Below are positions 10,501 through 61,580 of a stretch of DNA of 64,000 bases, piece by piece (position 1 is the stretch's first letter; each line of letters starts with the position of its first letter). Position numbers and translations under genes: made by a program. The stretch lies in contig NOWV01000019.1 of NCBI GenBank assembly GCA_003344405.1, positions 124,001 through 188,000 of the forward strand, given 5' to 3'. The stretch comes from Trichoplax sp. H2 (taxonomy: Eukaryota). Below the pieces are notes generated by a model. The model was not told where the DNA came from and did not search any database. It saw only the letters and a program-made list of their open reading frames with translations.

Positions 10501-13500
10501 TGGAAATTACCCATATGCAAAGCAGTGAAAAAGAAATTGTACCGCTAACAGATGCTATCTCCACTTCTAAAGCGCGAGGGCAAGTGGAGAAATGGCTGTT
10601 AGAATTAGAAGGCATCATGATTAAAAGTATTCGCAAAGTTATCGCCGATGCCCGCGATGCCTACGTTAATTCAGCTAGGAATCAATGGGTAACCGATTGG
10701 GTTGGACAATCTGTCTTGTGTGTTTCACAATTATATTGGACCAGCCAAGTCCATGAAGCCATTCGAGAAGGCCATGATAAAATGAAAGACTATCTACAAA
10801 AATGTAATAATCAACTGAGTGATATTGTCGAATTAGTGCGTGGTAAATTATCCGCTCAAAATCGCGTTACATTAGGCGCTTTGGTAGTGCTAGAAGTCCA
10901 TTCTCGCGATGTCTTGAGTAAATTAATTGATGATAAAGTAAGCAGTGAAACTGATTTTCAATGGCTTAGCCAATTGCGCTATTATTGGGAAAGCGAAAGT
11001 TTAATTACCAGGATGATTAATTCCACTTTAGCCTATGGCTATGAATATTTGGGCAATACAGGCCGCTTAGTAATAACGCCCTTGACGGATCGATGCTATC
11101 GAACCTTATTTGGAGCTCTTCATTTGCATTTAGGTGGTGCACCAGAAGGTCCTGCAGGCACAGGTAAAACTGAAACAGTCAAGGATCTTGCCAAAGCGGT
11201 TGCTAAGCAATGTGTGGTATTTAACTGTTCAGATGGCTTAGATTACATTGCTTTAGGTAAATTCTTCAAAGGTTTAGCATCTTGTGGTGCTTGGTCATGC
11301 TTTGATGAATTTAACCGTATCGATTTAGAAGTATTATCTGTTGTCGCTCAGCAAATTTTAACTATCCAACGAGGCATAAATCAAGGCCTGGATACTTTAT
11401 TATTTGAAGGCACTGAAATTAAATTAGATCCTACTTGTTCTGTATTCATTACTATGAATCCTGGCTATGCTGGTCGATCTGAATTACCGGATAACTTAAA
11501 AGCGTTATTCCGTACAGTAGCCATGATGGTACCCGATTATGCTATGATTGCTGAAATAGTTTTATATTCCTTTGGTTTCGTCACAGCTCGACCTCTTTCG
11601 GTCAAGATTGTAGCAACCTATCGCTTATGTTCCGAACAATTATCATCCCAACATCATTATGATTACGGTATGCGAGCTGTTAAATCGGTTTTAACTGCTG
11701 CTGGCAACTTAAAACTTAAATATCCCGACGAAAATGAAGATATTCTCATGCTACGTTCCATCCAAGATGTCAACTTGCCCAAATTTCTATCGCATGATCT
11801 GCCATTATTCGAGGGCATTGTATCTGATTTATTTCCTGGTGTTAAACTACCTAAGCCAGACTATGCTCTTTTATCCGCTGCAATCGAAGATAATTGTAAA
11901 CGAATGAATTTACAATTAACCGATACCTATTTAACCAAGATTTTGCAATTATACGAAATGATTACCGTTCGCCATGGGTTGATGATTGTTGGTGAACCTT
12001 TTGGAGGCAAGACCTCAGCTTATCGGGTATTAGCAGCTGCACTCTCCGATATTGCTGATCGTGGATCACTCAACGAAAATAAAGTACAAATCACCGTCAT
12101 TAATCCTAAATCCATTACCATGGGCCAACTATATGGATGCTTCGATCCCGTATCCCATGAATGGTCAGATGGTGTTTTAGCAGTTAGCTATCGCGCATTT
12201 GCTACTTCAACCACTCAAGATCGTAAATGGTTAGTCTTCGATGGTCCTGTCGATGCTATTTGGATTGAAAATATGAATACTGTATTAGATGATAATAAAA
12301 AATTATGCTTAATGTCTGGTGAAATTATTCAGCTAGCACCAACAACCAACTTGATATTTGAGCCAATGGATTTGGAAGTAGCCTCTCCAGCTACTGTAAG
12401 TCGCTGTGGCATGATTTATATGGAGCCACAAATGCTCGGTTGGCGACCTCTAATGTTATCATGGCTGAATAATTTACCTAAGACCATGAATAGTGATCAT
12501 AAATTGTTAATGACAAGTTTATTTGATCGCTTAGTACCACCTGCATTGCAATTTATCCGTAAAGGCGGATTTAAAGAAATTTCAGCAACTTCCGATACTA
12601 ATTTAGTCAACTCATTAATGAACTTGATGGATAGTTTAATGGATGAATTCCGCGATGAAGTTAAATTTACAACGCTGTCTGAATACGAAATCAACTCATG
12701 GATCGAGTGTATCTTTTTATTTTCTTTTGTATGGTCTATTGGAGCAACTATTACCGAAGATGGCCGAGTTGTATTTGATACTTTACTACGTGATCTTATG
12801 CAAGAAGGTTTATACGATGACAAAGGCAAAAAATATGGTATTAGCATCACCGTTGAGCCACCTATTCGACCATTTATATGCCCTTTCCCAGATGAAGGAC
12901 TTGTTTATGATTATCGATTTATTAAAGAAGGGCCTGGACGATGGGAAGCTTGGACCGATACAATCAATCAATCAGCTGCTATTCCAAAAGATATTACATT
13001 TAATCAAATTATCGTGCCCACCATTGATACTGTCCGCTATAGTTATTTAATGGAAACATTATTAACCCATGATAAGCCGACGTTGGTTGTTGGCCCGACA
13101 GGTACTGGAAAATCGACCTATATCCAAGATTTCTTATTAAATCGCCTACCAAAGGATACTTATCGACCTGTATTTATCAACTTTTCCGGACAAACTACAG
13201 CTAATCAAACTCAAGATATTATCATGTCTAAGTTGGATAAAAGACGTAAAGGTATCTATGGTCCACCATTAGGGAGGAGGACCATCGTCTTTGTCGACGA
13301 TGTTAATATGCCGGCTCGCGAAATCTATGGAGCGCAACCACCAGTTGAATTATTACGCCAATTCCTCGATCATAAAATGTGGTATGATCGTAAAGATAAT
13401 ACACAGCAAAAATTGATTGATATCCAATTAATTTGTGCTATGGGACCACCCGGAGGTGGCCGTAATCCAGTTACTCCGCGATTTTTACGCCATTTCAATC

Positions 13501-16500
13501 AAATCACCATCAACGAATTCCAAGATGAAACTATGGATCTGATCTTTACCACCATCATCAATTGGCATCTTCAAACGCAAAACTTTAGCGAAGAAGTAAC
13601 CGGATTTGGTAGTAAAATCATCTCAGCTACCAAAGCAATCTATCATAGTGCTATGAAAAATCTACTACCTACGCCTGCTAAATCGCATTACTTATTTAAT
13701 TTGAGAGATTTCGCAAGAGTGATTCAAGGTGTTGCTTTATCGTCACCTGAAGTTATCACAACAACGGATGAGCTGAAAAGGTTATGGACTCATGAAGTCT
13801 ATCGTGTCTATTATGATCGATTAATTGATGAAAAGGATAAAAATTGGCTATTTGAAACGATTAAGGGTGTCCATAAAGATCAATTAGGCTCTGATTTCTA
13901 CGACTTATTCCACCAATACGATTTAAATCAAGATGGTAACATTTATGAAGACGATCTCAATAGTTTAATCTATTGCGATTTTATGGATCCCAAATCTGAT
14001 TTTAAGCATTATATAGAAGTCGATAATTTAGATAAATTACGATCAGTTGTCGAAACTTATCTGGATGAATACAACAATATGAGCAAAAAACCAATGAATC
14101 TGGTACTCTTTAGATTTGCAATTGAGCATGTATCTAGAATTGCAAGAGTTCTCAAGCAACCTCGAGGGCATGCTTTATTAGTTGGAGTAGGAGGTAGTGG
14201 ACGCCAAAGTTTAACACGTCTTGCAGCACATATCTGCGATTATGAATTATTCCAGGTCGAAATGACCAAAAGCTATTCAACTCTAGAATGGAAAGAAGAT
14301 CTTAAAAGGGTTCTACGAAAAGCTGCTGAAGGGGACGTACCATGTGTATTCCTCTTTGCTGATACACAAATAAAGCAAGAATCGTTCTTAGAAGATGTCA
14401 GCAACATCTTAAATACAGGTGAAGTTCCTAACTTATTCCCAGCCGATGAAAAACAAGAAATTTGCGAAAAAATGAGACAAATTGATAGAATGAGAGAGAA
14501 ATCGAGACAAACTGATGGTTCTCCGTTAGCTCTGTTTAGCCTCTTTGTAGAACGCGTCAGAAATAGCTTACATATCGTGCTAGCTATGAGCCCAATTGGT
14601 GAAGCATTCCGTAATTATCTTAGGAAATTTCCATCTCTTGTTAATTGCTGTACTATCGATTGGTTTCATTCTTGGCCAGAAGATGCTTTACATATTGTTG
14701 CTCAACGCTTCTTGGAAGACACTGATCTCAGCGAAAATATTCTTAAAGGTTGCGTTAACATGTGTAAATTATTCCACAAATCAACTAGTGACTTATCATC
14801 GGCATATCTAGCAGAATTAGGTCGTTATAACTATGTTACACCAACATCTTACCTTGAGCTGATCAGCACTTTTAAGGCATTGTTGAATAAGAAACGAAGT
14901 GAAGTCATGAAAGCCAAACGCCGCTACGAAATAGGTCTTGAGCAACTTGTTTCCGCAGCAGATCAAGTATCAGCCATGCAATTAGAATTGGAAAATCTAC
15001 AACCTCAACTTAAGCAAGCATCCAAAGAGGTTGACGATATCATGGTCGTTATTGAGGCAGAGTCCATTGAGGTTTCTAAAACTGAGAAAATTGTTAAAGG
15101 AGATGAAGCAATAGCGAACGAGCAAGCTAAAGCAGCTAAGGCTATCAAAGATGAATGCGATGCAGATTTAGCTGAAGCTATGCCAGTACTAGAAGCTGCA
15201 TTATCTGCACTAAACACATTAACACAACAAGATATCACCTTCATTAAAACCATGTTAAATCCTCCACAGGGAATCAAGTTAGTCATGGAGGCAATTTGTA
15301 TTTTAAAAGGAGTCAAACCAGCTCTATCTGTCGATAATGCCACCGGCAAACGCACTGAAGATTATTGGGCTCCAGCTAAGCGATACCTACTAGGAGATTC
15401 AAATCTACTACGTTCACTACAAAATTATGACAAGGATAATATTCCATCCAATGTTATAAGAAGAATTAATGAACGATATATCGCCAATCCAGACTTTGAT
15501 CCTGAAAAAATTAAAGCTGCATCTATTGCTGCAGAAGGTCTATGCAAGTGGGTTATTGCAATTAGCCGCTACGATAAAGTGGCACGATTGGTAGCTCCTA
15601 AGAAAGCAGCATTAGCTGAAGCTGAAAAAGAGCTAGCGAAAGCTATGGATGCATTAGAAATAAAGAGAGCTAATCTTAGAGAAGTCCAAGATCGATTAGC
15701 TAGTCTGAGAGAAAGATTTGAAGCAAACACTCGCAAAAAGGAAGATTTAGAAAATCAAGTTGAACAATGCTCGAAAAAATTAGATAGAGCGAGGCAATTA
15801 TTAGGTGGTCTTGGAGGTGAAAAAGATCGCTGGAGTGAAACAGCGCTGAAACTTGGTGAAACTTACTCTAACTTAACTGGTGATACTTTAATATCATCCG
15901 GTGTTGTATCTTACTTAGGAGGATTTACATCTGCTTATCGCCAAAATCAAATCAATAAATGGGTTGATTTATGTAAACAAGAAAATATTCCTTGTTCACC
16001 AGAGTATTCTTTAACAGCAACATTAGGTGATAGTGTTAAAATTCGTCGATGGAATATTGCAGGATTGCCTACCGATTCATTTTCCGTTGAAAATGCTATC
16101 ATTATCACCAATTCTCGCCGATGGCCTTTAATGATCGATCCACAAGGTCAAGCTAATAAATGGGTTAAAAATATGGAAAAAATCAACAATTTACACACCA
16201 TTAAATTATCCGATAATGATTATATCAGAACGTTGGAGAATTGTATACAGTTTGGAACACCGGTGCTTCTCGAAAATGTTGGCGAGGAACTTGATCCCAT
16301 TTTAGAACCATTATTGTTAAAGCAAACTTTCAAGCAGGGTGGTAGTATTTGCATTCGATTAGGCGATAGCACTATCGAATATGCCAAGGATTTCAGATTC
16401 TACGTCACAACTAAATTGCGAAACCCTCATTTCTTGCCGGAGACAGCAGTAAAAGTTACTTTACTCAATTTTATGATCACTCCAGAAGGATTGGAAGATC

Positions 16501-19238
16501 AATTGCTTGGTATCGTAGTAGCTAAAGAAAAACCAGAATTAGAAGAAGAAAGAAATGGATTAATCGTTCAAAGTGCTGAAAATAGAAAACAGCTAAGAGA
16601 AATCGAAGATAAAATCCTAGAGTTGTTATCAGGCTCAGAAGGTAATATTCTAGAAGATGAAACAGCTATTACTGTTTTATCCTCTTCCAAGGCTCTATCT
16701 AATGAGATATCTGAAAAGCAAGCCACTGCTGACGAAACTGAACGAGAAATCAACATAGCACGACTTAAATATAAACCGATAGCTGAGCATTCGTCCATTT
16801 TATTCTTTACTATCGCCGATCTTGCCAATATCGATCCTATGTATCAATATTCTCTAACCTGGTTTGTTAATCTTTATGTTCACGCTATCGAAAATTCTGC
16901 AGCTTCCGAAGACATTACTACCCGATTAAAAAATCTAACAGACCATTTTACTTATTCACTCTATTGCAATGTATGCCGATCACTCTTTGAAAAAGATAAG
17001 TTATTATTTTCTTTCCTACTGGGTGTCAACTTATTGCGAAGTAGGAAAGAAATTGAAGAAATAGAATGGCGATTTTTATTAACTGGCGGTATCGGTCTTG
17101 ACAATCCTAATGAAAATCCAACAACGTGGTTGCCTGCAAAAGCATGGGATGAAATCTGTCGCTTGGATGAATTACCTAATTTCAAAGGGATACGCACTCG
17201 ATTCTCCATTTATATTGAAAGATGGAAAGAGATCTATGATAGCTTTGAACCACAAAATGAAGAATTACCTGGTGATTACTCTAGCAAACTACATCGATTC
17301 CAGAAATTGTTAATACTTCGCTGCTTACGACCAGACAAAGTGATACCTGCTGTACTCGACTTTGTAGCGGATAAACTAGGCAAAATGTATGTGGAACCGC
17401 CACCATTCGACTTAGGGAAAGCATTTGCTGATTCACATTGTTGTACGCCATTAATATTTATATTGTCGCCGGGTGCAGATCCAACAGTTGCCTTGCTTAA
17501 ATTTGCTGATGATCAAGGATTCGGAGGAAATCGATTTACTACGCTTTCTCTAGGGCAGGGTCAAGGCCCAATTGCAATGAAAATGATTGATAGAGCGGTA
17601 AAAGAAGGATCCTGGGTTATGTTACAAAATTGTCATTTAGCAGCTTCCTGGATGCCAACTCTTGAAAGGATTTGCGATGAAATGAATCCAGATACAACCC
17701 ATCCAGATTATCGCTTATGGCTAACGAGTTATCCATCCAAAGATTTCCCTGTAGCTGTATTGCAAAACGGTGTCAAGATGACTAATGAACCACCAAAAGG
17801 CTTGAAATTAAACGTTTTAAGATCATATAATACCGATCCTGTCAATGATCCAAGCTACTTTGAAAGTGTCAAGCAAGGTAAATCGTGGAAAAAATTGCTC
17901 TACGGTCTTTGCTTTTTCCATGGACTTGTACAAGAACGACGTAAATTCGGAGCTTTAGGATGGAATATACCTTATGAATTTAATGAAACAGATCTCCGCA
18001 TTAGTGTCCAACAACTCCATATGTTCTTAAACGATTATGAAACAGTGCCATTCGATGCTATTCGATACTTGACAGGAGAATGCAATTATGGTGGTCGTGT
18101 AACGGATGATCGAGATCGACGTTTAATAAAATGCATCTTGAATAAATTCTACAATCAAGATATCATTATAAATGATAATTATACATTTTCTCAAAGTGGA
18201 TCTTATTATGCACCAGCTGAAGGAAAATATGAGAGTTACTTGGAATATACTAAATCTTTACCAAGTGCTGCCCGTCCAGAGGTATTTGGATTACATGCTA
18301 ACGCTGACATTACCAAAGATCAAAAGGAAACTTATTCATTATTTGACAGTATACTTTTAACTCAAGCAAAAACGACATCTAGTCAAGGTAAATCAAGCGA
18401 TGAAATTGTATCCGAAGTGGCTACTGATATTTTAGCCAAATTGCCATCTGTTTACGATACTGAAGCGGCACTACGCAAATTTCCGACAACTTATACACAA
18501 AGTATGAATACTGTTTTAGTTCAGGAAATGACTCGATTTAATCATTTAATTCAAACTGTTCATGCAAGCTTAGTTAATGTACAGAAAGCTATCAAGGGTT
18601 TAGTAGTAATGTCTGCTGATTTAGAGGAAGTAGTAAACAGCATTCTTAAAGGTAAAATTCCAAGTTTATGGATGAAAAAGTCATATCCCTCACTAAAACC
18701 ATTGGGAAGTTATGTTAACGATTTACTACAACGATTAAAATTCTTCCAGGAATGGTATGAAATGGGAGAGCCCACTATTTATTGGCTATCTGGATTTTAT
18801 TTTACTCAAGCATTCTTGACAGGAGCTCAACAAAATTTTGCTAGAAAATATACTATTCCAATTGATTTATTAGGATTTGATTATGAAGTCTTAGAGGATA
18901 AAGACTATGAAAACCCACCTTCAGATGGCGTCTATGTTCGTGGAGTATTCCTCGAAGGTAGTCGGTGGGATCGACAGAAAAAGGCTTTAGCAGAATCGCA
19001 CCCCAAAATACTCTATGATGCTATGCCTGTCATATGGCTTAAACCTTGCAAAAAAGAAGATATTCCAGAGCGTAAGGCTTATGCTGCTCCGGTATATAAA
19101 ACGAGCGAACGACGAGGAACATTATCTACAACTGGACATTCAACTAATTATGTTATTAGTATGTCATTGCCAACGGAAGAGCCACCTGAGCATTGGATTA
19201 TGAGAGGTGTTGCATTGCTCTGCCAGCTAGATAATTAA
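4501..19238 (+). CDS. DNAH7: Axonemal inner-arm dynein heavy chain 7, about 18 exons and 4,000 aa; last exon 9288-19238
   Basis: The 3233-aa ORF has AAA P-loops ([32 protein letters not shown]), stalk and C-terminus GVALLCQL. Upstream exons read [82 protein letters not shown], matching the DNAH7 N-terminus. The first exon (MENQ, 4501-4512) is less certain. Confidence 0.93.
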
Positions 19239-25610: not shown

Positions 25611-26213
25611 TCAGTGTAATGATTCCATGACTTTTCGAGCTTCCTTTAATTCCCTAATAAGTTCACGAAGTCCTTCTCGATCGGTCGTGAAAGCAGCAGA
25701 CTTGACCTCATCATTGCTATCAGTAGCGGTGTAATTTAATTTTAAATGAAATTCTGGTTGATCAACTTGTTGCTGTACACTCGAACTCATAACGTAATCG
25801 ACGCGCCAATCGCATGACTTAAACTTGGATAATCGTAAGGAAGTGTCTTGCAATACTTGACGTAATTTTTCCACGTTATCGTGGTATGCCCGACATAATC
25901 CTGTAGCATGTTCTTTCGGCAAACCTAACTGTTGCAATTCATTGCATAATGCATCACTTTCCATATTATATTTAGCAGCATTGCATAAGATAAAATGAGA
26001 CGTTGCAATACTCCCTTTAATATCAGATAAATCAAATTTAGCATCGGCTGTCAACTTGTATACTTTATCATAATTTAATTCTCCTTCTAACATGCATTTG
26101 ATGACCTGAGTGATGAGAAGTTTCATCTTAACCGAAGACATCTTGGATAGATTGGTAATTTCGGCTAATACCCAATCAGGACAGTCTAAATCTCCACAAA
26201 ATTTAAATTTCAT
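25611..26213 (-). CDS. COMMD4: COMM domain-containing protein 4, intronless CDS, 200 aa
   Basis: MKFKFCGDLDCPDWVLAEI N-terminus, ELQQLGLPKEH and the COMM-domain DWRVDYVMSSS. Confidence 0.96.
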   Translation of the reverse strand: MKFKFCGDLDCPDWVLAEITNLSKMSSVKMKLLITQVIKCMLEGELNYDKVYKLTADAKFDLSDIKGSIATSHFILCNAAKYNMESDALCNELQQLGLPKEHATGLCRAYHDNVEKLRQVLQDTSLRLSKFKSCDWRVDYVMSSSVQQQVDQPEFHLKLNYTATDSNDEVKSAAFTTDREGLRELIRELKEARKVMESLH

Positions 26214-26643
26214 CTTGCCTTAGTCTGGTAAAAGTTGATCAGTACGATAAAATGGACTTTATTCTAACGATTCGATAGGTAAGAATGCAATCAATAAGTC
26301 AAGAGGGCTAAAAAAATTGCAATTTTCCTCTCCGCAATGGTGGTCAGCAATCGCCAATAGTCTAGTGGAAGTAATTTGGTCAAGGACTGCTACATTCTAT
26401 AGAATACGCTGGAATCGACAGTACTGACACCATCCAGTATGGCCAGCGAACTATGGAATCGAGCAATCCACTAGGGTAGATGGATTGCAGCTCGACGCCC
26501 GATGAAAAGAAGTGGCGGTGGGTGTGGCCGCAAGCCTTCTTGACTCTCAATGCACCATCTACCTGTATTTGTATAGGATTATCAGCGCTGTATGGGACGT
26601 CATATAGTCATCGACCATGATGGAGATCGATCACCAATTTCTT

Positions 26644-27120: not shown

Positions 27121-30100
27121 ATGAATAAATTAGTTCCTTCTGTTGTTCGTCTTATTTCCAGTGGCCAAGTGATTCATTCCATCCAGTCTGTTATCAAAGA
27201 ATTAATTGAGAATTCTTTAGATGCAGGTGCAACCAGCATCGATATCAAACTTGTAAGTTGATTTACTGTCTTAAAAATCTGGAAGTGATGAATTTTCTGT
27301 ATTGGAGATAGTGAATCGATCATGTCTTACGTGCAGTACGTTACATTAGTCTAACCAAGCTTGCATTGGAGTCTATTTACTGTAAATGGGATAATCAATG
27401 TGGTCAATAATGTCCTTAATGTCAATAATACACTCGATAGTGGACTTTAGTTGTGTTGGTTTTATTGAATGCTATGAAATAATATAATATTATACGTCTG
27501 TATTTGGAATCCTAGTCGTTGTAGCAGTTAAAACAGATCCCTATCCACCATTAATAGTAAACATCGCATCATATTTTTATGATGCTGTAGACCTAATAAG
27601 TTTGCCAGACTACAAGTCGATTGTTGTTGTCATCTCGTAATCTAGCTTTTTTTTATATACTGCAATAAGTTGGATATCAAATTGGATTTGCAATACGGAT
27701 AGACGTATACTATTGCAGTTGCGAGTTCTTAATACGAGTAGTATTAAAATTTTTGTTCTTTTCTTACAACCTGAATTCGCTCTTGCTATAAAACAGGAAA
27801 ATTTCGGATTAGACAAAATCGAGATACGCGATAATGGCTGCGGAATACCAGCAACAGAGACTGCTTACATGGGCCAAAAGCATTATACATCCAAGCTGAG
27901 AGATATGCAGGATTTAAGCTCGATAATGACCTACGGATTTCGCGGTGAAGCATTGAGCTCTTTATGTGCTGTAAGTGATGTTTCAATTGTGACTAAGACT
28001 CAAACTGACAACGTTAGCACATTTTACGAGCTCCATTATGATGGCACGATAAAGAAAAGCAAGCCATCTCATTACGGTCAAGGTACATTGAATATATATA
28101 TATCAGCTAGGAAATAAGACTATTGTAATTTCATTTTCACCGTATGACTGGCTGAATGATAATTGTAATATTTCTGATGTTTGTAACCGTTTTATGTATC
28201 AAATATTGTCCTTTATAACAGGTACATCGATCATTGCGTGCAACTTATTTAAGAGTTTGCCAGTTAGGAGACAGGTATATAAAACCAACAAAAAGTGCAA
28301 AGAAGAATTAAAACGAATAGAGGATTTAATCATTTCTTATGCCATTATCAAACCGACCGTTCGATTCTGTCTTAAACACAATAAAAGTGTAATATGGCAA
28401 AAATGCCAGGTAGCTGATATTGGCTCTGCCATATCGGTCGCATTTGGACGTGCCGTCTTTTCTGAAATGATCACGATCAATTACAAGGGCGAAGATCCAG
28501 CGTTTTCTCTTCGTGGATATATTCCCAAAAATTACTCCAATGATGAGCTAACTGGTAGATCGAATAGTGATCGTTGTTTTATTTATATCAATCAGCGACC
28601 TGTAATGTTTAAAGGTGTCTTGCAGGTGTGTCCTTAGTTTGTACATGGAATAGTTACGGTATAAAATCTATCTCTAGTAGTTAAATTAATAAATACAATT
28701 AACATAGGTGATATGAACTTAACTGTTATTGTTACATTCTTTAAAATGCATTACATTCAGGCCATCAAACACCATTACCTTGCATGCCAAAAAGGACAAA
28801 TTAATAAATGGCCAATCGCTATTCTTGACTTTACTATTGATTCGAAATTGGTCGATGTTAATGTAGAATCGAGTAAAACTCAGGTTTATCTTAGCTTTAA
28901 GGTATATCAATTCCAATTCCCCTTATTTATCGAATTATATAATACTATTGATTACTTAATGTTGACATTGAAGTTAAAATCATCGAGGATTTCAATCCTA
29001 TTTTTTTTTATGACACTCTCTAGGACGAATTAATAGCATCATTTAATGATCACTTAGATTCCTTAGCTCCATCAGAGCATCAATGCAGTGATCCGTAAGA
29101 AACTTTATATGTTTTCATTACTTTCCATTATAAGTCTGAGAAAATTCAAATTATTCTATTTTAATAGACCTCAAAAATTAGATCTGGCAACGAAAGCTCC
29201 TGATGTTTCGGTATCAAATGAATCTTCAGTTATTAAAGAATCAGTGAGCAACCATTGCTACGATCAGATTTCGTATGATGGTAAATCAGTTGAAACTCCT
29301 CATGAAGTATCAAAAGTTCATAATACAGTACAAGCATTTGATATCAATAGTACATCATATGAAAATACTACGAATGCAATGGAATGTACGGATGATCATG
29401 ATGGCCAAAATAATGATAATGCCACCACCGCTAAGATTGGAGATGAAAATATCGTCATATCGGTGCAAGAGTCTGCTACAACTGATAGCAAACATGAATT
29501 ACCTGAATCTTCAAAGGTAGATACTGAAGATTTAATCATGGAAATTGCTGAAGATGATGGCTTTGCTGGTACCGTAGATCATGATAATTCCTTAAATAAA
29601 AATGAATCGATCCCTATTTGTGATAATCATGCAAAAACAACAATTCAGGATAACAATAAAAATGAAGGTATGGTAAATTGACAGTGCATTGTTGATATAC
29701 GCTTACTGTATTACATAGTCCTATTGCTCTCAAGAAACTGACAACAAGCTGACGTGGTTATAATAGTAGATGATGTGGAACGAGTAATTTTGCCGGAAAA
29801 CATCGATCTAGCTAGTTGGAGTAAAGGTAAAGGTTTAGAAGAAAGGACTCTGGAGGTACGTAATACCAATAATGTTTGTATAGATGTGACTGTCTCATAA
29901 TTTTAGCTAACTCATATCGGTTCACTACTTTTACTTATGATTCTAGTTTCATAATTAATACGTCATTTTGTTTAAGCCGGTTAGTATCTTAGTTCCAATG
30001 CGCGGCCCAGAAAATGCTCCAGATACACCACTGGGTGTTGACATGCTTTCAACTCCTGATAAAATAAATGTAAATGCATATCTCTGAAATTCTATTTTTC

Positions 30101-50209: not shown

Positions 50210-52062
50210 TTGGATAACTTATAGAAACAATAGCTTGTTTGATATTGGTTAAAAGTCCCTGGTATAACCCATAGAGTTAGTTCGTTTTTGAATCTCGATC
50301 TAGGTTGGGAAATTTTTTTTTCCTAATATTTCTTGACTTGCGGATTATTTTACCTCCATAACCTACGTTTGGTTAGTCACTAAAATAAATAACTCATCCA
50401 TGAATATACAGTGTAGTGGTACAGTCTTGTATATTATTAGTCACTGGATAACCTACAGAACCAATGACTTGTTGGATATTTGTTAAAAGTCCCTGGTATA
50501 ACCCATAGAGTTCGTTTTTGAACCTAGATTGGAAAATTTTTTTGCTTACGGGTTATTTTACCTCCATAACCTACAGTTGCTTAGTCGCTAAAGTAAATAA
50601 TTCATCTATGAATATTCGTACAGTGCAGTGACACAGTCTTCTATTTTTACATAGAGATCGTTTTTTAATCTTGATCTAGATAGGGAAATTTTATTTTTAT
50701 AATATTTCTTGACTTACGAGTTATTTTACCTCCATAGCCCACGTTTGGTTAGTCACTAAAATAAATAACTTATTCATGAATATACAGTGTAGTGGCACAG
50801 TCTTGTGTATTTTTAGTCATTGGATAACCCATAAAACCAATGGCTTCTTAGATATTTGTTAAAAGTCTTTGGTATAACCCATGGAGTTCGTTTTTGAATC
50901 TCGATCTAGGTTGGAAAGTTTTTTATAATTTTTTTTGCTTACGGGTTATTTTACCTCCATAACCTACAGTTGGTTAGTCGCTAAAATAAATAGTTCATTC
51001 AAGAATATTTGTACAGTATAGTAATACTATCTTCTATTTTTAGATAGAGTTCGTTTTTTAATTTCGATCTAGATTGGGAAATTTTTTTTCATAATATTTC
51101 TTGACTTACGAGTTATTTTACCTCCATAACCTACGTTTGGTTAGTTACTGAAATAAATAATTCGTTCATGAACATACAGTGCAGGGACACAGTCTTGTAT
51201 ATTTTTAGTCATTGGATAACCTATAGAACCGATGACTTGTTGGATATTTATTAAAAGTCTTTGGTATAACCCATAGAGTTCATTTTTGAATCTCGATCTC
51301 GATTTTGGAAAATTTTTTTATTACTTACGGGTTATTTTACCTCCATAACCTACATATAGTTCATTTTCACTAGAATAAATAATTCTTTCATGAATAGAGT
51401 CACACTGTCTTAAATATATTTAGTCATTGAATAACCTATAGAACCAATGATTTATAGGATATTTATTAAAAGTCCATGGTATAACCATAGAGTTTGTCTT
51501 TTAATCTCGATCTCGATTGGGAAATATTTTTTTCATAATATTTCTTTACTTGCGGGTTATTGCACCTCTATAACCTATATAGTAGGTCGGTCACTAAAAT
51601 AAATAATTCATTGATGAATGTAGTGATACAGTCTTATATATTTTTAGTCATTGGATAACCCATACAACCAATGACTTGTTGGATATTTGTTCAAAGTCTC
51701 TGGTATAACCCATAGAGTTCGTTTTTGAATCTCGATCTAAATTGGAAAATTTTTTTTATTATTTTTTTGAATTACGGGTTATTTCACCTCCATAACCTAC
51801 AGTTAGCTAGTCACTAACATAAATCATTCATTCATGACTATACAGTGTAGTGATACAGTCTTCTATTTTAGTCATTGGATAACCTATACAACCAATGACT
51901 TGTTGGATATCTGTTAAAAGTTCCTAGTATAACCCGTAGAGTTCTTCTTTTAATCTGGATCTAGATTAGGGAATTCTTTTTTATCCTTATTTTTTACTTA
52001 CGGATTATTTTACCTCCATAACCTACAGTTAGTTAATCACTAAAATAAATAATTCATTCATT
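50210..52062. repeat. Tandem satellite, about 9 units of roughly 168 or 205-225 bp
   Basis: The TTATTTTACCTCCATAACC core recurs near 50345, 50552, 50720, 50945, 51113, 51331, 51557, 51779 and 52004. Confidence 0.95.
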
Positions 52063-53007: not shown

Positions 53008-55092
53008 ATTTTGAGAGTCAAGTGCCAGAGTCCTATTCGAGGCGATTTAAGAGCGAATTCCACAGTACAAGAGGATAGCATGCACCGTTTTACTTGATAG
53101 AAATGGAATATTGATGGCATGCACGATTGCACTAGATTGAAATGGAATAATTGTGAACTGCAGGTTGAAATTTTTCAGCATGTGTCAACATGTCCATTGC
53201 ATGTGTACTATCCGTTTTGAGAGTCAAGTGCTAGAGCCCCATTAATAAATGCGTTTTGAGAGCAAATTCAACAGCACAAGAATTTCACTTGATCGAAATG
53301 GAGTTTTTGTAAACTGGAAGTTAAAACTTTTCAACATGTTTCAACATTTACATTGGATGTGTATTATCTGTTTTGAGAGACAGGGGCTAGAGCCCTATTG
53401 GATACCAAATGATAGCTAAATGATACCAAATATATCTCTAAATGATATATTATAATCATAAATTATATAATCTATAAATGTATCATTTAGTATCATGTAG
53501 AGAGCAGATTCAATAGCTCGAGAATTTCACTTGATCGAAATGGAGTATTTGTGAACAGCAAATTGAAACTTTTTCAACATGTTTCAGCATGTGTTCTATC
53601 TGTTTTGAGAGTCAAGTGCTAGAGCCCCCACCCCCATTGGAGGCATTTCGAAAGCACAGGAGGATGGCATGCACCACTTCACTTGATCAAAATGGAGTAT
53701 CTGTAAACTGCAAGTTGAAATTTTTTTAATATGTCTCAACATTTGCATTGCATGTGTACTATCTGTTTTGGAAGTCAAGTGCTAGAGTCCCATTAGAGGC
53801 AATTTGAGAACAAATGTGTACTATCTGTTTTGAGAGCCAAGTACTAGAGCCCCATTGGAGGCAATTGGAGAGCAAATTCGACAGCACAAGAGGATGGCAT
53901 GCACCACTTCACCTGACCGAAATGGAGTATTTGTGAGCTGCAAGTTGAAACTTTTCAACATGTTTCAACATTTGCATTGCATGCGTACTATCTGTTTTGA
54001 GAGTCAAGTACTAGAGCCCCATTGGAGAGCAAATTGGACAACACAAGAGGATGGCAAGCGCCATTTCACTTGATTGAAATGGAGTATTTGTAAACTGCAA
54101 GTTGAAACTTTTCAACATGTTTCAACATTTGCATTGCATGCGTACTATCAGTTTGAGAGTCAAGTACTAGAGCCCCATTAGAGGCAATTGGAGAGCAAAT
54201 TGGACAGCACAAGAGGGTGACAAGCGCCATTTCACTTGATTGAAATGGAGTATTTGTAAACTGCAAGTTGAAACTTTTCAACATTTGCATTGCATGCGTA
54301 CTATCAGTTTGAGAGCCAAGTACTAGAGCCCCATTGGAGGCAATTGGAGAGCAAATGTGTACTATCAGTTTTGAGAGCCAAGTACTAGAGCCCCATTGGA
54401 GGCAATTGGAGAGCAAATGTGTACAATCAGTTTTGAGAACCAAGTACTAGAGCCCCATTAGAGGCAATTGGAGAGCAAATTCGACAGCACAAGAGGATGG
54501 CAAGCGCCATTTCACTTGATCGAAATGAAGTATTTGTGAAAGTGGAAATTTTTTTAACATGTCTCAACATTTGCATTGCATGTGTACTATCAGTTTTGAG
54601 AGTCAAGTACTAGAGCCCATTGGAGAGCAAATTCGAGAGCACAAGAGGATGGCATGCACCACTTCACCTGATCGAAATGAAGTATTTGTAAACTGCAAGT
54701 TGAAACTTTTCAACATGTTTCAACATTTGCATTGCATGTGTACTATCTGTTTTGAGAGCCCCATTAGAGGCAATTGGAGAGCAAATTCGACAGCACAAGA
54801 GGATGGCATGCGCCATTTCACTTGATTGAAATGGAGTATTTGTAAACTGCAAGTTGAAACTTTTCAACATGTTTCAACATTTGCATTGCATGCGTACTAT
54901 CAGTTTTGAGAGCCAAGTACTAGAGCCCCATTGGAGGCAATTGGAGAGCAAATGTGTACAATCAGTTTTGAGAACCAAGTACTAGAGCCCCATTAGAGGC
55001 AATTGGAGAGCAAATTCGACAGCACAAGAGGATGGCAAGCGCCATTTCACTTGATCGAAATGGAGTATTTGTGAAAGTGGAAGTTGCAATTT
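53008..55092. repeat. Tandem satellite of about 165-bp units with about 60-bp sub-repeats
   Basis: Recurring TTTTGAGAG(T/C)CAAGT(A/G)CTAGAGCCCCATT(A/G)GAGGCAATTGGAGAGCAAAT...TTCACTTGATCGAAATGGAGTATTTG...GTTGAAACTTTTCAAC. Confidence 0.95.
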
Positions 55093-56151
55093 TTGAAAGC
55101 GAGTGAAAGTGGAGAGAACAGCGTCAAATGACGTCAGCGTGAGACATGCGCTGTTGTGGCTTTCATCACTTGCATGACGTATCTGTAGAGTGTAGAGTGT
55201 ACAGTGTACAGTGTAGAGCACTCTGGCCACCTTCAGTCAGTATTGTTTTTGGCTCCTTTCTGCAGGTTGGATAGTACTGTAGATTTCATTGGTTTTGACT
55301 GAGGGCAGAATCGCGCGCACGACACTAACTCAACTTGCAATGGCAACGAGTCGAATTGGAGTAGACCCACTCAAACCACCCGCTACACCATAGAATTGGA
55401 GAGAGTGGAGTAGCGATGCGTAGATTTGCCCAAGGCCATGATGGTGCGCATGCGTGGCAGTGGAAGGCAAAGAGTCTTTTTGCAGCGCGGTTTTTGTTCA
55501 ACGAAAAGGGGACAAAATCTGCTGTGGAAAGTCTGTGCAAAAGAGAAACAAGTCTCTATCGGTGAATAACTGCTGTCAAAATCAGCATTTAAACATTTTT
55601 ATTCAACTGAAATAGAAGCATTTTGACAGTGTATTTTCATGTTGTAGGAAATATCGTGAGATTGTCCACTTTTTGAAGTCGTTTTTGTTCAGCAAGACTT
55701 TGTTGTAACGTGGAGTTTCAACGATATCCAAGTACAGCGGTTGGGCTAGCACATTCAAAGGTAAGAAATGGCCTTTGAAAAAAGGCCATTTGTCCAAGTT
55801 AATCATGTTGATAGTAGTTTTAAAGGATCAGCTATCATGGAAAAGGAGTGACAAAGAGTCAATTGATGGATGTTTCTTTTTTTAGCTTGAGTGGTATCGA
55901 GTTGTGTAAGCCATCAAAGGAGTGGATTTTCAAGTCCAATCATTGCCATCCACGTCTCCTTCCTTGCCTACCATCAATAATACTACGGTATATAGTAAAT
56001 GTCACTTTTCCATATTGCGCGTGATCTTGAGACTCAAAAGTGTGCAACAGCAGCCAACCACTTCTTATCATCTCAACGTAGTAGGTGAGGATTATTGCAT
56101 CAAGTCATCATTGGCTAAGTTACATCTTGAAGGGAAAGAAGGAAGGGAACA

Positions 56152-58634
56152 ATGTCGAGCCACTTTGACTTGTGGGCACACTTTCGCCTGGTTGGTATGT
56201 CTGCAAGTGGTAAAACGCATCAATACACTTGCGCCTACTGTGGTCGAAAGTATTCAAGGAATACCACTCGTATGGCTGATCATTTGAAAGATTGTAGCTT
56301 AACACCGGAAGATGTTAAAACTACCCTATTAAATAGTGTCAACGAAGAAAATGGTGACTCGCCTGACAATACGCCGGTAGCGACACCAAATGCCAACAAG
56401 CGTAAACGACCTTCAGGTAGCAGGTATCGATTAGTTCGCCATACATCCAAAAGAGAATTTAGAGAAACTGAAAGAATTATTGCACGAGCATTTTATGCCA
56501 CTGCTACGCCATTTAACAGCATTGAAAATAAGCACTGGCAAGTGATGTTAAGTCGATTTTGTCAAGGATATGAAACGTTAACCAAAGGTCATTTATCCGG
56601 TGTCTTGTTAGACACGGAATACACGCAAGTTCGAGCTAAAATCAATGAAATATTAGATGAAACTCATCGGATTACATTGCTGACCGACATTGTTATAGCT
56701 GATCACAGCGAAGTCTATATTAACTTTATAGCATCGACTCCCAAACCGATCTTTTTAAAGTCGGTATCGATCCATGCAGGTAGGACGAATTTTTCTCATT
56801 CCATATTTATTTGACTTTGACGTTTATGAATGATTATGTAATCAGTCATGCTCACCTTCAACCCAAATTGAAACTATCGAAATGCCTACCATCGATAGCG
56901 GGCGGATATCATCATCAATCATTGAAATGATTGATCCCCCTTAGCTAGAGATTAGGATCATTTTCTTATTGAATTGTGTGTAGGATTTATTGCTCATGAG
57001 TTCACGCTCATTGGATAAACCAATTGTTACGATTACAGCCTGTTTACAAATAGGCTAGTGGCATGATGGATTAGTTCACCATCAAAACGTTTACAGTATA
57101 CCTCTTACCTTCGACTAACTTTACTTGACCTTTGCAGTGATGGCTATAACCGTAGATAGAGTATCATCTCTATATACTGTCCATATCAACATGTGTGTTT
57201 GCAATGTAGGAGTGTTATCCTCTTCAGTTTACCAATGGTAACGAGAGGGTAGCTTGAAATGTAAGAGTGTTGTCATCTTCAGTTTACCAATTGTAACTGG
57301 AAGGTAGCTTGAAAATTCCAGCAAACTTGCAGTATCATTCAATTGATCCAACTGTCTCGTGATGTGATGCCTCGCTTGTAGGCTGTTGTCTAGAGTGAAA
57401 TATTGGATTGTGTCACGGTATGCATGGACTTTAATCGAATTTTTTTCATGTATTACTCGCAGGCAATGAAGTGCAAATGGCTGAAGGAATCGCCTTTCAA
57501 ATCAGAGAGATTTTCAAGGAAATTGACTATCAAAAAGTGATTTCTATCGTTACCAACGACTCCAAAACAGCAAGACCGGTTCAAAATTTGCTAACTGGCG
57601 AGTACCCTCATTTAAATTTTTATTGTTGTTGTAGCCACATTATCAATCTGTTACTATCGGATACCCTGGAAGTAGACTGGAGTAAAGATTTATTATGTAA
57701 ATGTATCGACATAGTCAACTACTTTAACCGGAATGCCTTAGCGTTAGCGACATTGCAAAATTGTCAGCAAGAAAAATATCAACGAGTTATTCCTTTGGTA
57801 ATGCCGGTACTGGATGATTACGAAACTATAAAGCTATGTTACACCTGCCTGCTAAATAGCAAGTCAGCGTTGCATAGTGCTGTCACTGAAGCTGGCTTTG
57901 TTGATACGCATATCTGTAATTTGATAATGTCGGAAGATTTTTGGATGAATTTGAAAATATACTCTGATTTTATGGATCCAATGATCGAAACAGCTGTCAG
58001 TTTTGAAACAACTCAGCCAGCATTATCTGCAGTATTTGATAAATTTCATAGCATCTCTCAACATATTAACAACTGCAACTTGCCTATCAAGACTTCCATT
58101 GCCACATTTTTCAACCAAAAATGGCAATTGATTATCAATCCGATGATGCTGTTAGCTTACCAGTTAGATCCGAAATATCGTGGTGAGCATTTATTATGTG
58201 AACATAATGCTAAAGTGATTTTTATGGTGTCCACTATGGCTGGTCCCAACTCTTCGGCTGCTTTGAGTGAATTAGCCTGTTTTAGAAGTCAACAAGACAA
58301 ATCGGTATTTAGTCAATCCAGCGTATGGGATTGCGCATCTGGTGTTGATGCGTCCTCTTGGTGGGAATTGATCAAGCCAAGTTGCCCTAATCTTGCTACT
58401 ATTGCCAATGTTGCTTTATCGCAGCCGGCCAGTGTAAGTGCTTGTAAACCGAAATGGTTATCATCTTTACTAATACAAGAGCAACGCACTAAATACGACG
58501 TGGAGACTGTTGATAAAATGATCTTTCTCCACTGGAATTTAAATATGTTGGAAGATAAAGATTTGAATGATGTCACAGCAGAAGTCAAATCTATTGATGA
58601 TAGTAGAACAATCGAAGACGACGAAGAAAATTAA
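56152..58634 (+). CDS. BED zinc finger + hAT transposase-derived protein (ZBED-like), 2 coding exons (56152-56779, 57463-58634), 599 aa; probably domesticated and catalytically inactive
   Basis: BED finger LWAHF...CAYC...RMADHLKDC; NLS-like KRKRP; IARAFYATATPFNSIENKHW; CxxH motif CCSHIINLL; LAYQLDPKYRG; hAT dimerisation region SSWWEL...CPNLATIANVALSQPAS. Phase-1 intron CAG|GTAGGA...TCGCAG|GC joins the two ORFs in frame (1800 nt). Confidence 0.88.
57203..57314. repeat. Two tandem copies of about 55 bp inside the intron of the hAT-derived gene
   Basis: AATGTA(G/A)GAGTGTT...TCTTCAGTTTACCAAT(G/T)GTAAC...GGTAGCTTGAAA occurs twice. Confidence 0.8.
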
Positions 58635-60361
58635 GCACCACTGTTATGTTGAAAAGGAAAAAATATCATTTTTTAGTTTCTGTTCTTACTGTATTTAATT
58701 TAATGGAATTGCTACTTTCTATGCTAATTCAACCACCCAAGACGAGCTATACTAAGTACTCCAACAGATGAACGATTGTAGAAACACCTAATTGATCGCG
58801 CTATTCCTGTAACTTACAGTTGTTGTAGATATAAATCTGTAGGTAGTACAAATTATTGGGCTGCAATTATGATACATGTGTTGAGTTTTGCGACTGAGGG
58901 TATCTGCAGTTTGTCCTGATTGTGGAGTTGGTTTTCATAGGTTTAGGAGAATGTTTTTACTGGTTTCATCGGAATAAACGGCCTCGTCACTCCAGGTTAC
59001 GTTACTTTAGGTGTCATTTTGTTATCGAGTTAACATTGATGTACAGAACGGAACAACCATTGCAAAAAATTTCTTTTTGATTTTTTCAACTTGTTAATTG
59101 ATCACTCTTGGATAGCCGTTTGGTAACGGTTGTCTAAACACGCTTAGGCACTCATCTGTATTATCCAATATTAGTTCCTTGTGACCAGTTTGATCGATTA
59201 AAAGGTTGACTTCACCTTTCATCTAATTTTTAGCAATCAATTTATAAGTAGCAATTCTCAAGGCGAATTAATGCACAACTACAAACAACGATTCATTGTT
59301 GTACTACTCTATTTGATAGACGAAAGGCCGTTCTAACTTAGGTTTGAGGCATTTCGTAACGCAATATCGATGTACCAAGTTTAATACAATGAGTACTGCC
59401 AAGGTAGTACTATACTTATTACCTGAATAAATAAATCTATAATGTAGTAATTGTCATAGGATGGTGTAGAATATCATTTTATTCATGTATAACCACTATG
59501 ATGTTATGTATGTCATTCTATCAATAAACGTTTAAAAGGAGATATTAACTGAGGTTGCTTCTCCATGGTCATTTTTAGTGAGTAGCTCTTGGCAAGTGAT
59601 GAATTCGTAGAGTACGATGAAATAGAGTATGGTTATGATGAGGAGAGATGGAGTACCGTCAACGTCCATCAACCGTTTTGTCAATGTTGAGCAAGTATAG
59701 AAATGGAATAGACGTTGTATATGCACTATTGATGAACATCCTTTGAATGATACCTGAAGAAATGAGGGGACCCTACCTTATGCATGTCAAACATAATTTT
59801 AGCAATTGATTATTAATGGACATTTTTATTTGTTGCGTTCGTCTACTTTACATCAATGAGTGGGTATTTCAATTTCTTGGCAGAAAAGTCGACCGCTTTA
59901 TTTTGCCTTTCAATGACGACGTTGTCCATTTCCGTCTTCGCTACAACAACTTGAATAAGAATTCAGAATGATGTGCTAATTGCTGCATCTGCACGCACTC
60001 TTATCCCCCCGATCATGCTGTGCTCGCTAGTCCGCTGCGAGCGATGATGTTGTTGGTCAATATTGTCCCATAAACAAGGATTATCTCCATGATGAATAAA
60101 CAACAAGGCAATTCAATTGGATTTCATCCTTTGTGATAAATGCATTAAACGTGCTTTTACTGCACGTCTACCCTATCATTACAGAACTGAAAAAATCACT
60201 TGGTATTACTGATGCTATCACTATGCCAATGGCCCATTCTCATCATGATTGCGCGTGCATGTCTAGTCGAAATCGAGCTCAAATTGGCCATGCTAACTCG
60301 TCCATTCAATGTGATTTTGGGTTGGAGTACAGTACACTAGTCATTTTGGATCGTTGACTGT

Positions 60362-60520
60362 ACAGTCTAAATTCGGCCTAAGGACACAGTTGGTTATTCA
60401 AGGTTTTCATACAAGTTTTCACAGTACTCCTAAGACAGTCTAAATTTGGCCTCAAGGCAGTTGGTTATTCAAGGTCTAGACTTGGTCATTCAAGGTTTTC
60501 ATCCAGGCTTTGACAGTTCT
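60362..60520. repeat. Short degenerate direct repeats
   Basis: ACAGTCTAAATT(C/T)GGCCT twice; TTGGT(T/C)ATTCAAGGT three times. Confidence 0.75.
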
Positions 60521-60998
60521 CGTATGCATTGGTGTGTCGAACAATGAATTTTCCTTTCCAATTTTTGCATGGCATCGTATATAATCAAGTTCTTATGACT
60601 ATGTGCTTCCACTGTTCTTCCATGGACAGTTTGTACATCATGCTATGAAGTAGAGTAGTCATTTTATCTTCATTTGAGTACTCTTTTTGCCCATTTTGGC
60701 AGTTTGGAAAGAAAATTCAACACATCAGACTCTCTACCTACTGCACTACTGTAGGAGGACGCGGGGCGCTGACTGCTGAGTCATTCAATCCTATCCGTCG
60801 TTGTACAAAAGGCGAGCATGACCCATTGGTCACGTGTTGCGAGCCAGTTGTCCACATGTCCAAACGTCCATGTACAATGAAAAGCAAAAGTAAAAATCAA
60901 GTACGGTGATCGTGACAGTCATGGATGGTTGGTCTCTAGTGCTTCTTGTTCAATTTTCAAATCGCCATCACAATTTGGACTGCTCTAGTACAGTAAGT

Positions 60999-61580
60999 AG
61001 ATCAACCCCAACGATAAAGTATGTACCTATGTTGAGTAATTCCTAGCAAAATGATGGAAAGTACTGGCAACAAGAACGACTACTATACGCGTACAGCACA
61101 CCATTGACTATACAGTAAACCTGCCTATAGAATACAGTAGGTTCCACTGGCGGCTCTATTTAAATAACTACGGTATAAAAGAAACGCCAATGAAGGAATA
61201 GATCAACGCAATGATAAAGTATGTTCTTACGTTGAGTAATTCCTAGTAAAATGATGCAAAGTACTGGCTACAAGAACTACTATACAGTACACCCTTCACT
61301 ATAAACCTGCCTGTAGAATAGGAGACACTGACGGCTCCATTAAATTAAATAAATAAATAACTACAGTACTGTACAAAAAAGAAACGCAAATGAAGGAATA
61401 GATCAACGCAATGATAAAGTATGTTCCTAGGTTGAGTAATTCCTAGCAAAATGATCCAAAGTACTGGCAACAACTACTATACGCGTACAGTACACCATTC
61501 ACTATAAACCTGCCTATAGAATAGGTCACACTGGCAGCTCCATTTAAATAACTACAGTACAAAAAGAAACGGCATGAAAG
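60999..61580. repeat. Tandem repeat, 3 x about 200 bp
   Basis: AGATCAAC...GATAAAGTATGT...GTTGAGTAATTCCTAG...AAACCTGCCT(A/G)TAGAATA...AAATAACTAC at 60999, 61200 and 61400. Confidence 0.93.

Follow-up and report, generated by a model that had tools for sequence, protein, structure and literature searches.

A reading frame for a BED-hAT protein in the genome of Trichoplax sp. H2 raises the question of whether it belongs to a mobile element or to the host. The gene lies in a 64,000-nt stretch of contig NOWV01000019.1, which is referred to here as the window and in whose numbering all positions are given. A preliminary description, made from the letters alone, considered it to be an intact, spliced but catalytically dead transposase gene that had been domesticated in a lineage-specific manner and was serving as a host DNA-binding or regulatory protein. 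The structure of the gene, the fold of its product, its copy number, conservation and relatives all bear on the answer.

The joined coding exons (Table 1) comprise 1800 nt, corresponding to 599 amino acids and a stop codon, with no internal stop, as determined by a script run on the window. The spliced product agrees letter for letter with RDD45098.1, annotated in Trichoplax sp. H2 as 'hypothetical protein TrispH2_002937'. The previously proposed 599-aa open frame with a single spliceosomal intron is thus borne out. The 683-nt coding junction is present in both RNA-type sequencing runs (X15, which is RNA on record, and X16, which is guessed to be RNA) and in neither DNA-type run (X3, which is DNA, and X21, which is probably DNA); these are four of the 24 listed runs and were inspected as contigs, so the junctions carry neither transcript level nor strand. 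Acceptors at 57471 and 57486 would also be in frame, but the RNA joints end the intron at 57462 instead.

The transcript contains four introns, three of them in the 5' UTR. The latter occupy 55562-55647 (found in X15 only), 55761-55885 and 55988-56081 or -56084; X15 shows both joints of the tandem acceptor and X16 shows the one at 56081. A spliced 5' UTR with a donor at 55761 and an acceptor at about 55885 had been predicted. Both sites were right, and two further introns have now been added. The start of the first exon at 55515 is a provisional boundary. The conserved 41-nt block upstream of it is probably the core promoter or the start of the 5' UTR, and the loose ends of this block in X21 resemble its flanks in the window. 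Nothing supported the notion that the block is the repeated motif of the promoter hubs, given that it is single-copy in its own genome. A search of positions 54900-61000 against Rfam gave no match at E<=0.1. The neighboring VPS25 gene, encoded on the minus strand, occupies about 47.3-49.8 kb of the window, and a tandem array (rows 53752-55015) is positioned between it and the BED-hAT gene.

Table 1. Features of the BED-hAT gene, in window coordinates.
Feature	Position	Strand	Remarks
41-nt upstream block	55469-55509	+	40 of 41 letters alike in the diverged run X21
5' UTR exon 1	55515-55561	+	joint over 86 nt GT..AG in RNA run X15; donor GT 55562
5' UTR exon 2	55648-55760	+	contigs of X15 and X16; donor GT 55761
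5' UTR exon 3	55886-55987	+	acceptor AG ends at 55885; donor GT 55988; joints seen in both X15 and X16
Non-coding start of exon 4	56082-56151	+	tandem acceptors ending at 56081 and 56084
Coding exon 1	56152-56779	+	aa 1-209, with the BED finger, the basic KRKRP patch and the first half of the DUF659/RNase H-like core
BED zinc finger	56170-56295	+	ligands C27-C30-H44-C48; PF02892
KRKRP	56398-56412	+	residue 83, disordered linker; kept in both orthologues
First catalytic Asp, TDIV at 178	56686-56694	+	D179 kept; Trp column of DxW is V181
Coding-region intron	56780-57462	+	683 nt, GT-AG, phase 1
Coding exon 2	57463-58634	+	aa 210-599, with the remaining RNase H-like core, the helical insertion domain, the hAT C-terminal region and an acidic tail
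Second catalytic Asp column, VTND	57555-57560	+	N241 then D242; family order is D then N
CxxH motif (CCSH)	57627-57638	+	C265 and H268 kept
RW motif columns (DDY)	57816-57821	+	read D328-Y329
hAT C-terminal region	58320-58538	+	PF05699; W509-W510 and L520 kept
Catalytic Glu column, SVSACKPKW	58446-58448	+	reads K538
3' UTR	58635-59484	+	end approximate: X15 contig to 59484, X16 contig to 59331
Conserved 3' UTR block	59169-59368	+	X21: 19 other letters and 12 gaps in 200

The protein is derived from a hAT transposase and consists of a BED finger, an RNase H-like core with a helical insertion and a hAT C-terminal region. Three Pfam families, zf-BED (PF02892, residues 7-46), DUF659 (147-289) and Dimer_Tnp_hAT (PF05699, 496-568), match the whole protein, all above their cut-offs. 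The AlphaFold2 model, calculated from an alignment of 82 rows, has a mean pLDDT of 89. Its best match among solved structures is Hermes (Foldseek E 1.1e-12; Z 24.9, rmsd 3.5 A over 389 residues), and the next structure that is not a hAT protein has a Z of 11.8. The pLDDT falls below 50 at residues 68-94, the linker that contains KRKRP, a candidate nuclear localization signal.

Residue conservation was counted in an alignment of 78 non-orthologous homologues (P0002 and, selected for rank and length, 77 of the 149 listed matches), to which three orthologous pieces were added. The four BED ligand columns are nearly invariant (C in 45/45, C in 44/45, H in 51/54 and C in 50/51), as is the CxxH motif (C in 75/77, H in 71/77), and the columns of W509 and W510 are at least 90% invariant. 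The homologues have Asp in the D179 column (63/69) and Trp in that of V181 (60/69). They have Asp at N241 (71/76), Arg and Trp at the RW columns (73/78 and 63/76), and Glu at K538 (71/77). The VTD, TRW and ASERTFS motifs of Hermes meet these same columns in both profile and pairwise alignments. The columns were fixed by alignment; the catalytic residues of Hermes itself we take to be D180, D248, W319 and E572. The triad is therefore D179/N241/K538 and not an intact D-D-E. Of 129 non-placozoan rows in a broader alignment, 100 have all three columns filled; 81 of these have D-D-E, and none of the other 19 has D-N-K.

Each motif reading of the preliminary description holds: the complete CCHC finger, KRKRP, CxxH and the C-terminal dimerization region are present, DxW reads TDIV, VTDN reads VTND with the Asp displaced by one place, TRW reads DDY, and the Glu motif reads SVSACKPKW(LS). 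Its term 'catalytically dead' stands insofar as N241, K538 and the altered RW columns mark an inactivated site; the loss of all chemistry is a likely consequence, but D179, D242 and the CxxH motif remain.

Neither near-identical copies nor transposon ends were found. The protein encoded by exon 2 and the upstream 1.1 kb of DNA each gave one match in the 95-Mb genome, counts that are lower bounds. The closest intact relative, P0008, matches only the BED-hAT gene and two remote long open frames in this genome, also a lower bound, and PF05699 occurs in at least five places in the 95 Mb. A search for terminal inverted repeats (TIRs) with 8-bp target-site duplications (TSDs), from 6.2 kb upstream to 5.4 kb downstream, yielded no pair at 9/11 and three weak pairs at 8/11, which is chance level (mean of 2.1 in shuffled controls). 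The absence of ends near the gene, noted earlier by eye, thus withstands a shuffled control. An active autonomous hAT element can be rejected: the triad, the RW motif and the Trp of DxW are not intact, there is no TIR/TSD above chance, and no related copies were found.

The gene is conserved across placozoans. Orthogroup OG_9431, labelled zf-BED.HG4.0 in a published supplement (PMC10580291), holds one gene in each of four placozoans. In the table of the same study (PMC10580291), where gene numbering stands in for scaffold order, the gene and its two orthologous neighbors bear consecutive numbers in three genera (002936/37/38, g07378/79/80 and 003432/31/30, with VPS25 in first place each time). 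N241, D328-Y329 and K538 are identical in the orthologues P0001 and P0004, so these exon-2 losses are old. Of the first 62 residues, which span the BED finger, 61 are identical in two orthologues.

Run X21 contains a diverged copy with 88 and 155 other letters over coding exons 1 and 2. Its intron is at the same place but cannot be aligned (676 letters skipped, 551 other letters between). In codons 1-64 there are 21 listed differences from X21, 19 synonymous and two non-synonymous; taking these as complete, pS is 0.475, pN is 0.013 and dN/dS is 0.018. Both amino acid changes and a 6-nt gap in this span match protein P0005, and for this reason the 243 nucleotide differences were combined with the 44 amino acid differences of P0005 and P0001. 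The whole-gene dN/dS estimated from these combined counts, and not from a codon-model fit, lies at 0.035-0.062 if 45-65 changes are non-synonymous and reaches 0.137 if a generous 100 are assumed; dS is 0.55-0.95. The 44 changes are distributed over about 587 codons, so that constraint spans the whole protein. Among near-identical runs, 10 of the 11 listed coding variants are synonymous. These approximate figures indicate strong purifying selection, which appears to be strongest on the BED finger.

Single copy number, the lack of TIRs and TSDs, splicing, low dN/dS and orthologues beside VPS25 together argue that the gene represents a placozoan-wide domestication, found in Trichoplax, Hoilungia and Cladtertia. 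The proposal of a domesticated gene is upheld in this wider form: the domestication is specific to placozoans but not to one species. The preliminary description had listed multiple copies, TIRs and TSDs, lack of expression, lack of synteny, dN/dS near 1 and an intact triad as observations that would speak against it, and none of these was made. The origin from a hAT element is likewise supported; the regulatory function is an inference, discussed below.

The nearest relatives share 19-35% identity with the protein (1114 representatives at E<=0.001), and below an orthologue at 91% the next match over most of the length is at about 31%. These relatives are hAT proteins of the DUF659 type that come from plants, fungi, oomycetes and arthropods, and all those from outside the placozoans look like transposases. 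The top Atlas clusters are DUF7963/DUF659 families; three of ten clusters carry a species name, and these are from a firefly, a tick and an oomycete. Word-based protein searches, which covered at most the best 8000 candidates, returned the orthologues and one intact relative, and no non-placozoan orthologue was among them. A FastTree phylogeny of 65 rows, comprising homologues picked by likeness to the gene and placozoan paralogues, with no ZBED or DREF sequence, groups the gene with its orthologues at a support of 100, within DUF659-type rows at 83. The other placozoan hAT genes are on long branches, which fits one or several origins alike. A join with two oomycete dead-triad rows (P0020 and P0083, E-D-K) is a long-branch join and is not trusted.

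The vertebrate proteins ZBED1 (hDREF), ZBED4 and ZBED6 of the Ac family and ZBED5/7/8/9 of the Buster family offer a close parallel in architecture, having a BED finger, a full transposase body and a hAT C-terminal region. Like them, the placozoan gene is single-copy, syntenic and constrained, and has kept the WW..L self-association residues. Unlike them, it has a D/N/K triad and a coding intron, and it contains DUF659 where ZBED1 has other RNase-like families. Being of the DUF659 type and lacking DDE, it does not belong to the vertebrate ZBED family in the sense of Hayward et al. 2013. The ZBEDs are reported to have arisen in jawed vertebrates from Ac and Buster elements and to have retained their DDE triad (PMC3606216), and the placozoan table sets the homology group of the gene, which has no human name, apart from the group 'like:ZBED1' (PMC10580291). 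On these grounds, namely domain class and literature, an origin independent of ZBED1/4/6 and DREF is likely.

Drosophila DREF and BEAF-32 are other invertebrate domesticated BED proteins. DREF, which is likened here by domain description and not by sequence, combines a BED with a hATC domain and acts as a regulator at promoters and boundaries (PMC7471704). The plant DAYSLEEPER/SLEEPER genes are also domesticated BED-hAT host genes (PMC11351766); they belong to the plant lineage and are likewise compared by description, not by sequence. Hermes shares the fold and the CCHC BED finger, but it is only 17% identical, and the placozoan protein has lost the second and third catalytic acids and RW and has no TIRs. 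The DUF659-type hAT transposases named above, which supply all the nearest relatives, differ in mostly keeping D-D-E (81/100).

The history of the locus was probably as follows. In a common ancestor of Trichoplax, Hoilungia and Cladtertia, an old DUF659-type hAT transposon would have landed next to VPS25; it would then have lost its ends, gained a spliced transcript of host type and been kept by selection. The present protein would enter the nucleus by means of KRKRP and self-associate through the retained hAT scaffold with its conserved WW..L. W509, W510 and L520 keep the spacing of W590, W591 and L601 of ZBED1, which are required for self-association, nuclear entry and DNA binding (PMC7471704). 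The oligomer could then offer at least two BED fingers to a DNA site that is short and either repeated or palindromic; the BED domains of Hermes are described as reading short subterminal repeats, several of which are gathered by the oligomer (PMC10368747). Once bound, it may, like DREF and ZBED1, recruit transcription or chromatin factors of the host, and DNA cutting would have no part in its role. According to the same account of hAT proteins, domesticated members rarely keep catalysis but do keep DNA binding (PMC10368747).

Published single-cell data offer a hint about the targets. The H2 gene is in module TrH2.darkred with a weak score of 0.60; this module has 127 rows, is unlabelled in the annotation sheet and contains many housekeeping genes in its top 30 (PMC10580291). 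The Cladtertia orthologue belongs weakly (0.51) to a pan-peptidergic module, and no row was found in the module table for the other two orthologues of OG_9431 (PMC10580291). Membership that is weak and differs between species is read as no consistent restriction to a cell type. Since the module of the H2 gene has no cell-type label, the likeliest targets of the protein are genes with broad expression. Overall, the protein is probably a nuclear, self-associating BED-finger DNA-binding regulator that works like DREF or ZBED1.

Several other roles would be compatible with parts of the evidence. The protein might act chiefly as an adaptor or a protein scaffold, in the manner of a SUMO ligase for example, and not as a reader of specific DNA sequences; selection along its entire length and the SUMO ligase activity reported for ZBED1 (PMC7471704) could be read in this way, but the BED finger is the most conserved part and fits a fixed DNA target, making such a role unlikely. 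A domesticated silencer or decoy, which would bind the ends of hAT-derived miniature elements or poison oligomers of active transposases, would make good use of a dead site in a whole end-binding and oligomerization scaffold, given that Hermes BED domains bind subterminal repeats (PMC10368747). Yet no multi-copy cognate hAT family was found in the protein-based searches, P0008 matching only three long-frame loci and PF05699 at least five places in the 95 Mb, and a protein engaged in defence should change rapidly, whereas the finger is nearly invariant. This explanation is rather improbable. Retention as a host nuclease or recombinase with a rearranged active site, made up of D179, the shifted D242 and CxxH, would explain why D179, D242, C265 and H268 are conserved in orthologues and would have a precedent in vertebrate ZBEDs that keep DDE (PMC3606216), but with lysine as the third acid and the RW motif gone it is very improbable. 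The resemblance of all non-placozoan relatives to transposases might even suggest that the gene is a transposon copy of recent date, or one in decay, whose frame has stayed open by chance. That can be practically dismissed in view of the same locus in three genera (by gene numbering), a dN of about 0.01-0.05 against a dS of about 0.75-0.95, four introns and the lack of ends.

A bolder proposal concerns genome architecture. Trichoplax and Cladtertia have in common conserved loops between promoters, placozoans lack CTCF, and the factor that forms the loops has yet to be named (PMC12221973). The gene is conserved in both genera, the BED proteins BEAF-32 and DREF act at boundaries (PMC7471704), and hAT oligomers hold several DNA sites at once (PMC10368747), so a chromatin architectural protein that tethers promoters into hubs is conceivable. 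The hub motif resembles the TIRs of Mutator elements (PMC12221973) and not hAT ends, however, which puts a Mutator-derived or C2H2 protein first; furthermore, the six other BED/hAT genes of the genome are equal candidates, and nothing found here links the protein to the motif. A tethering role is accordingly quite improbable. Its fullest version, in which the dead oligomeric BED-hAT protein is the missing factor that tethers housekeeping promoters without CTCF and is one of about seven immobilized hAT genes forming a transposase-derived regulatory layer, is a speculation to be held just as loosely. Returning to the favored DREF/ZBED1-like regulator, the gene is a concrete candidate for promoter regulation in placozoans, in which the factor responsible for looping is still being sought.

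The gene itself is already known: it has been annotated and appears in a supplement as an unnamed zf-BED factor (PMC10580291). No publication describing it as a domesticated transposase was found in the literature searched, outside which most subscription papers lie. BED-hAT domestication, described for vertebrates, flies and plants, now reaches a non-bilaterian phylum, and the placozoan case involves another hAT clade and loss of the catalytic triad (two of three acids). A 2023 catalogue assigns to Trichoplax five transposon-derived transcription factors (three CENPB, one HTH-Psq and one THAP), none of them a ZBED, and ties this low number to the simple body (PMC10027918). All four placozoans also have OG_4010, a second zf-BED orthogroup, which is represented by two adjacent models in H2 (PMC10580291). 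The BED-hAT gene and OG_4010 show that the count of the catalogue is too low.

Family searches of the genome revealed at least six more hAT/BED loci with long open frames, which have at most weak similarity to each other. No ends clearly above chance were detected at these six loci, the best being one AT-rich pair (10/11) at C186. Their triads, read from alignments at about 20% identity and hence uncertain, are D-M-D at C186, D-E-H at the second C230 locus, N-D-E at C464 and D-N-E at C885; the C289 locus has D-D-E without either Trp-bearing motif intact, and C907 was only partly assembled from exons. The second C230 locus contains a one-base frame break, which the split H2 models of OG_4010 fit, and this orthogroup presumably corresponds to that locus.

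Besides the domesticated BED-hAT gene of the window, long open frames are present at six further hAT/BED-derived loci of the Trichoplax sp. H2 genome. The divergence among these six is very high. The catalytic motifs are changed in most of them, and the D-D-E triad is retained at the locus on contig C289. The six loci possibly constitute a set of additional domesticated genes.

hAT/BED-derived loci with long open frames (G000, the Trichoplax sp. H2 genome; C, contigs; L, excised loci with their own coordinates)
Feature	Position in locus	Contig
hAT/BED-derived locus	L007:3630-5444	G000:C186
hAT/BED-derived locus	L008:3928-5989	G000:C230, near 385 kb
hAT/BED-derived locus	L009:3411-6177	C907
hAT/BED-derived locus	L010:4016-5914	C464
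hAT/BED-derived locus	L015:3845-5908	C289
hAT/BED-derived locus	L017:253-2511	C885

The second BED-hAT gene of C230 is split by a one-base frame break (L008:4640-4650), which may be an assembly error or an allelic difference, into frames of 448 and 240 amino acids. It is probably the pair of adjacent H2 models in OG_4010, the second zf-BED orthogroup of four placozoans, in which each of the other three species has one gene, whereas H2 has two models.

Four BED-hAT homologues, P0020 (from the oomycete Globisporangium), P0083, P0089 and P0103, have the triad E-D-K and have lost the RW motif. They possibly stem from a domestication event of their own in which the Glu-to-Lys change arose convergently.

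The 3' UTR of the main gene contains a 200-nt non-coding block (59169-59368) with about 90% identity to the diverged copy of organism C, and in this comparison it is better conserved than synonymous sites. The block has no match in Rfam.

In both RNA-type runs a low-depth contig extends from inside the 683-nt intron into exon 2 (region 56969-57488), starting at 56969 in one run and at 57004 in the other, and there is no coverage over the initial 190 intronic nt. This hints weakly at an internal start, yielding a BED-less form of the gene, or else at a retained intron. A separate 1085-nt contig of RNA run X15 begins about 110 nt past the gene's 3' end (59597-60000 and beyond); no long ORF was seen in this region, and the contig may be part of the unnamed downstream neighbour (OG_4008) or non-coding.

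Upstream, two tandem arrays (53752-55015 and 50536-52061), composed of nested 62-nt and 154-nt units and also of 224/392-nt units, separate VPS25 from the hAT-derived gene. Elsewhere in the window, a gene at 9288-19235, presumably dynein heavy chain-like from its motifs, has a single open frame of 3316 codons, unusually long for one exon of an intron-rich genome. An intronless frame adjoins a second gene (25614-26219, minus strand, and 27641-29678, plus strand); from their translations we take these to be a COMMD4-like frame and a MutL/PMS1-like gene.
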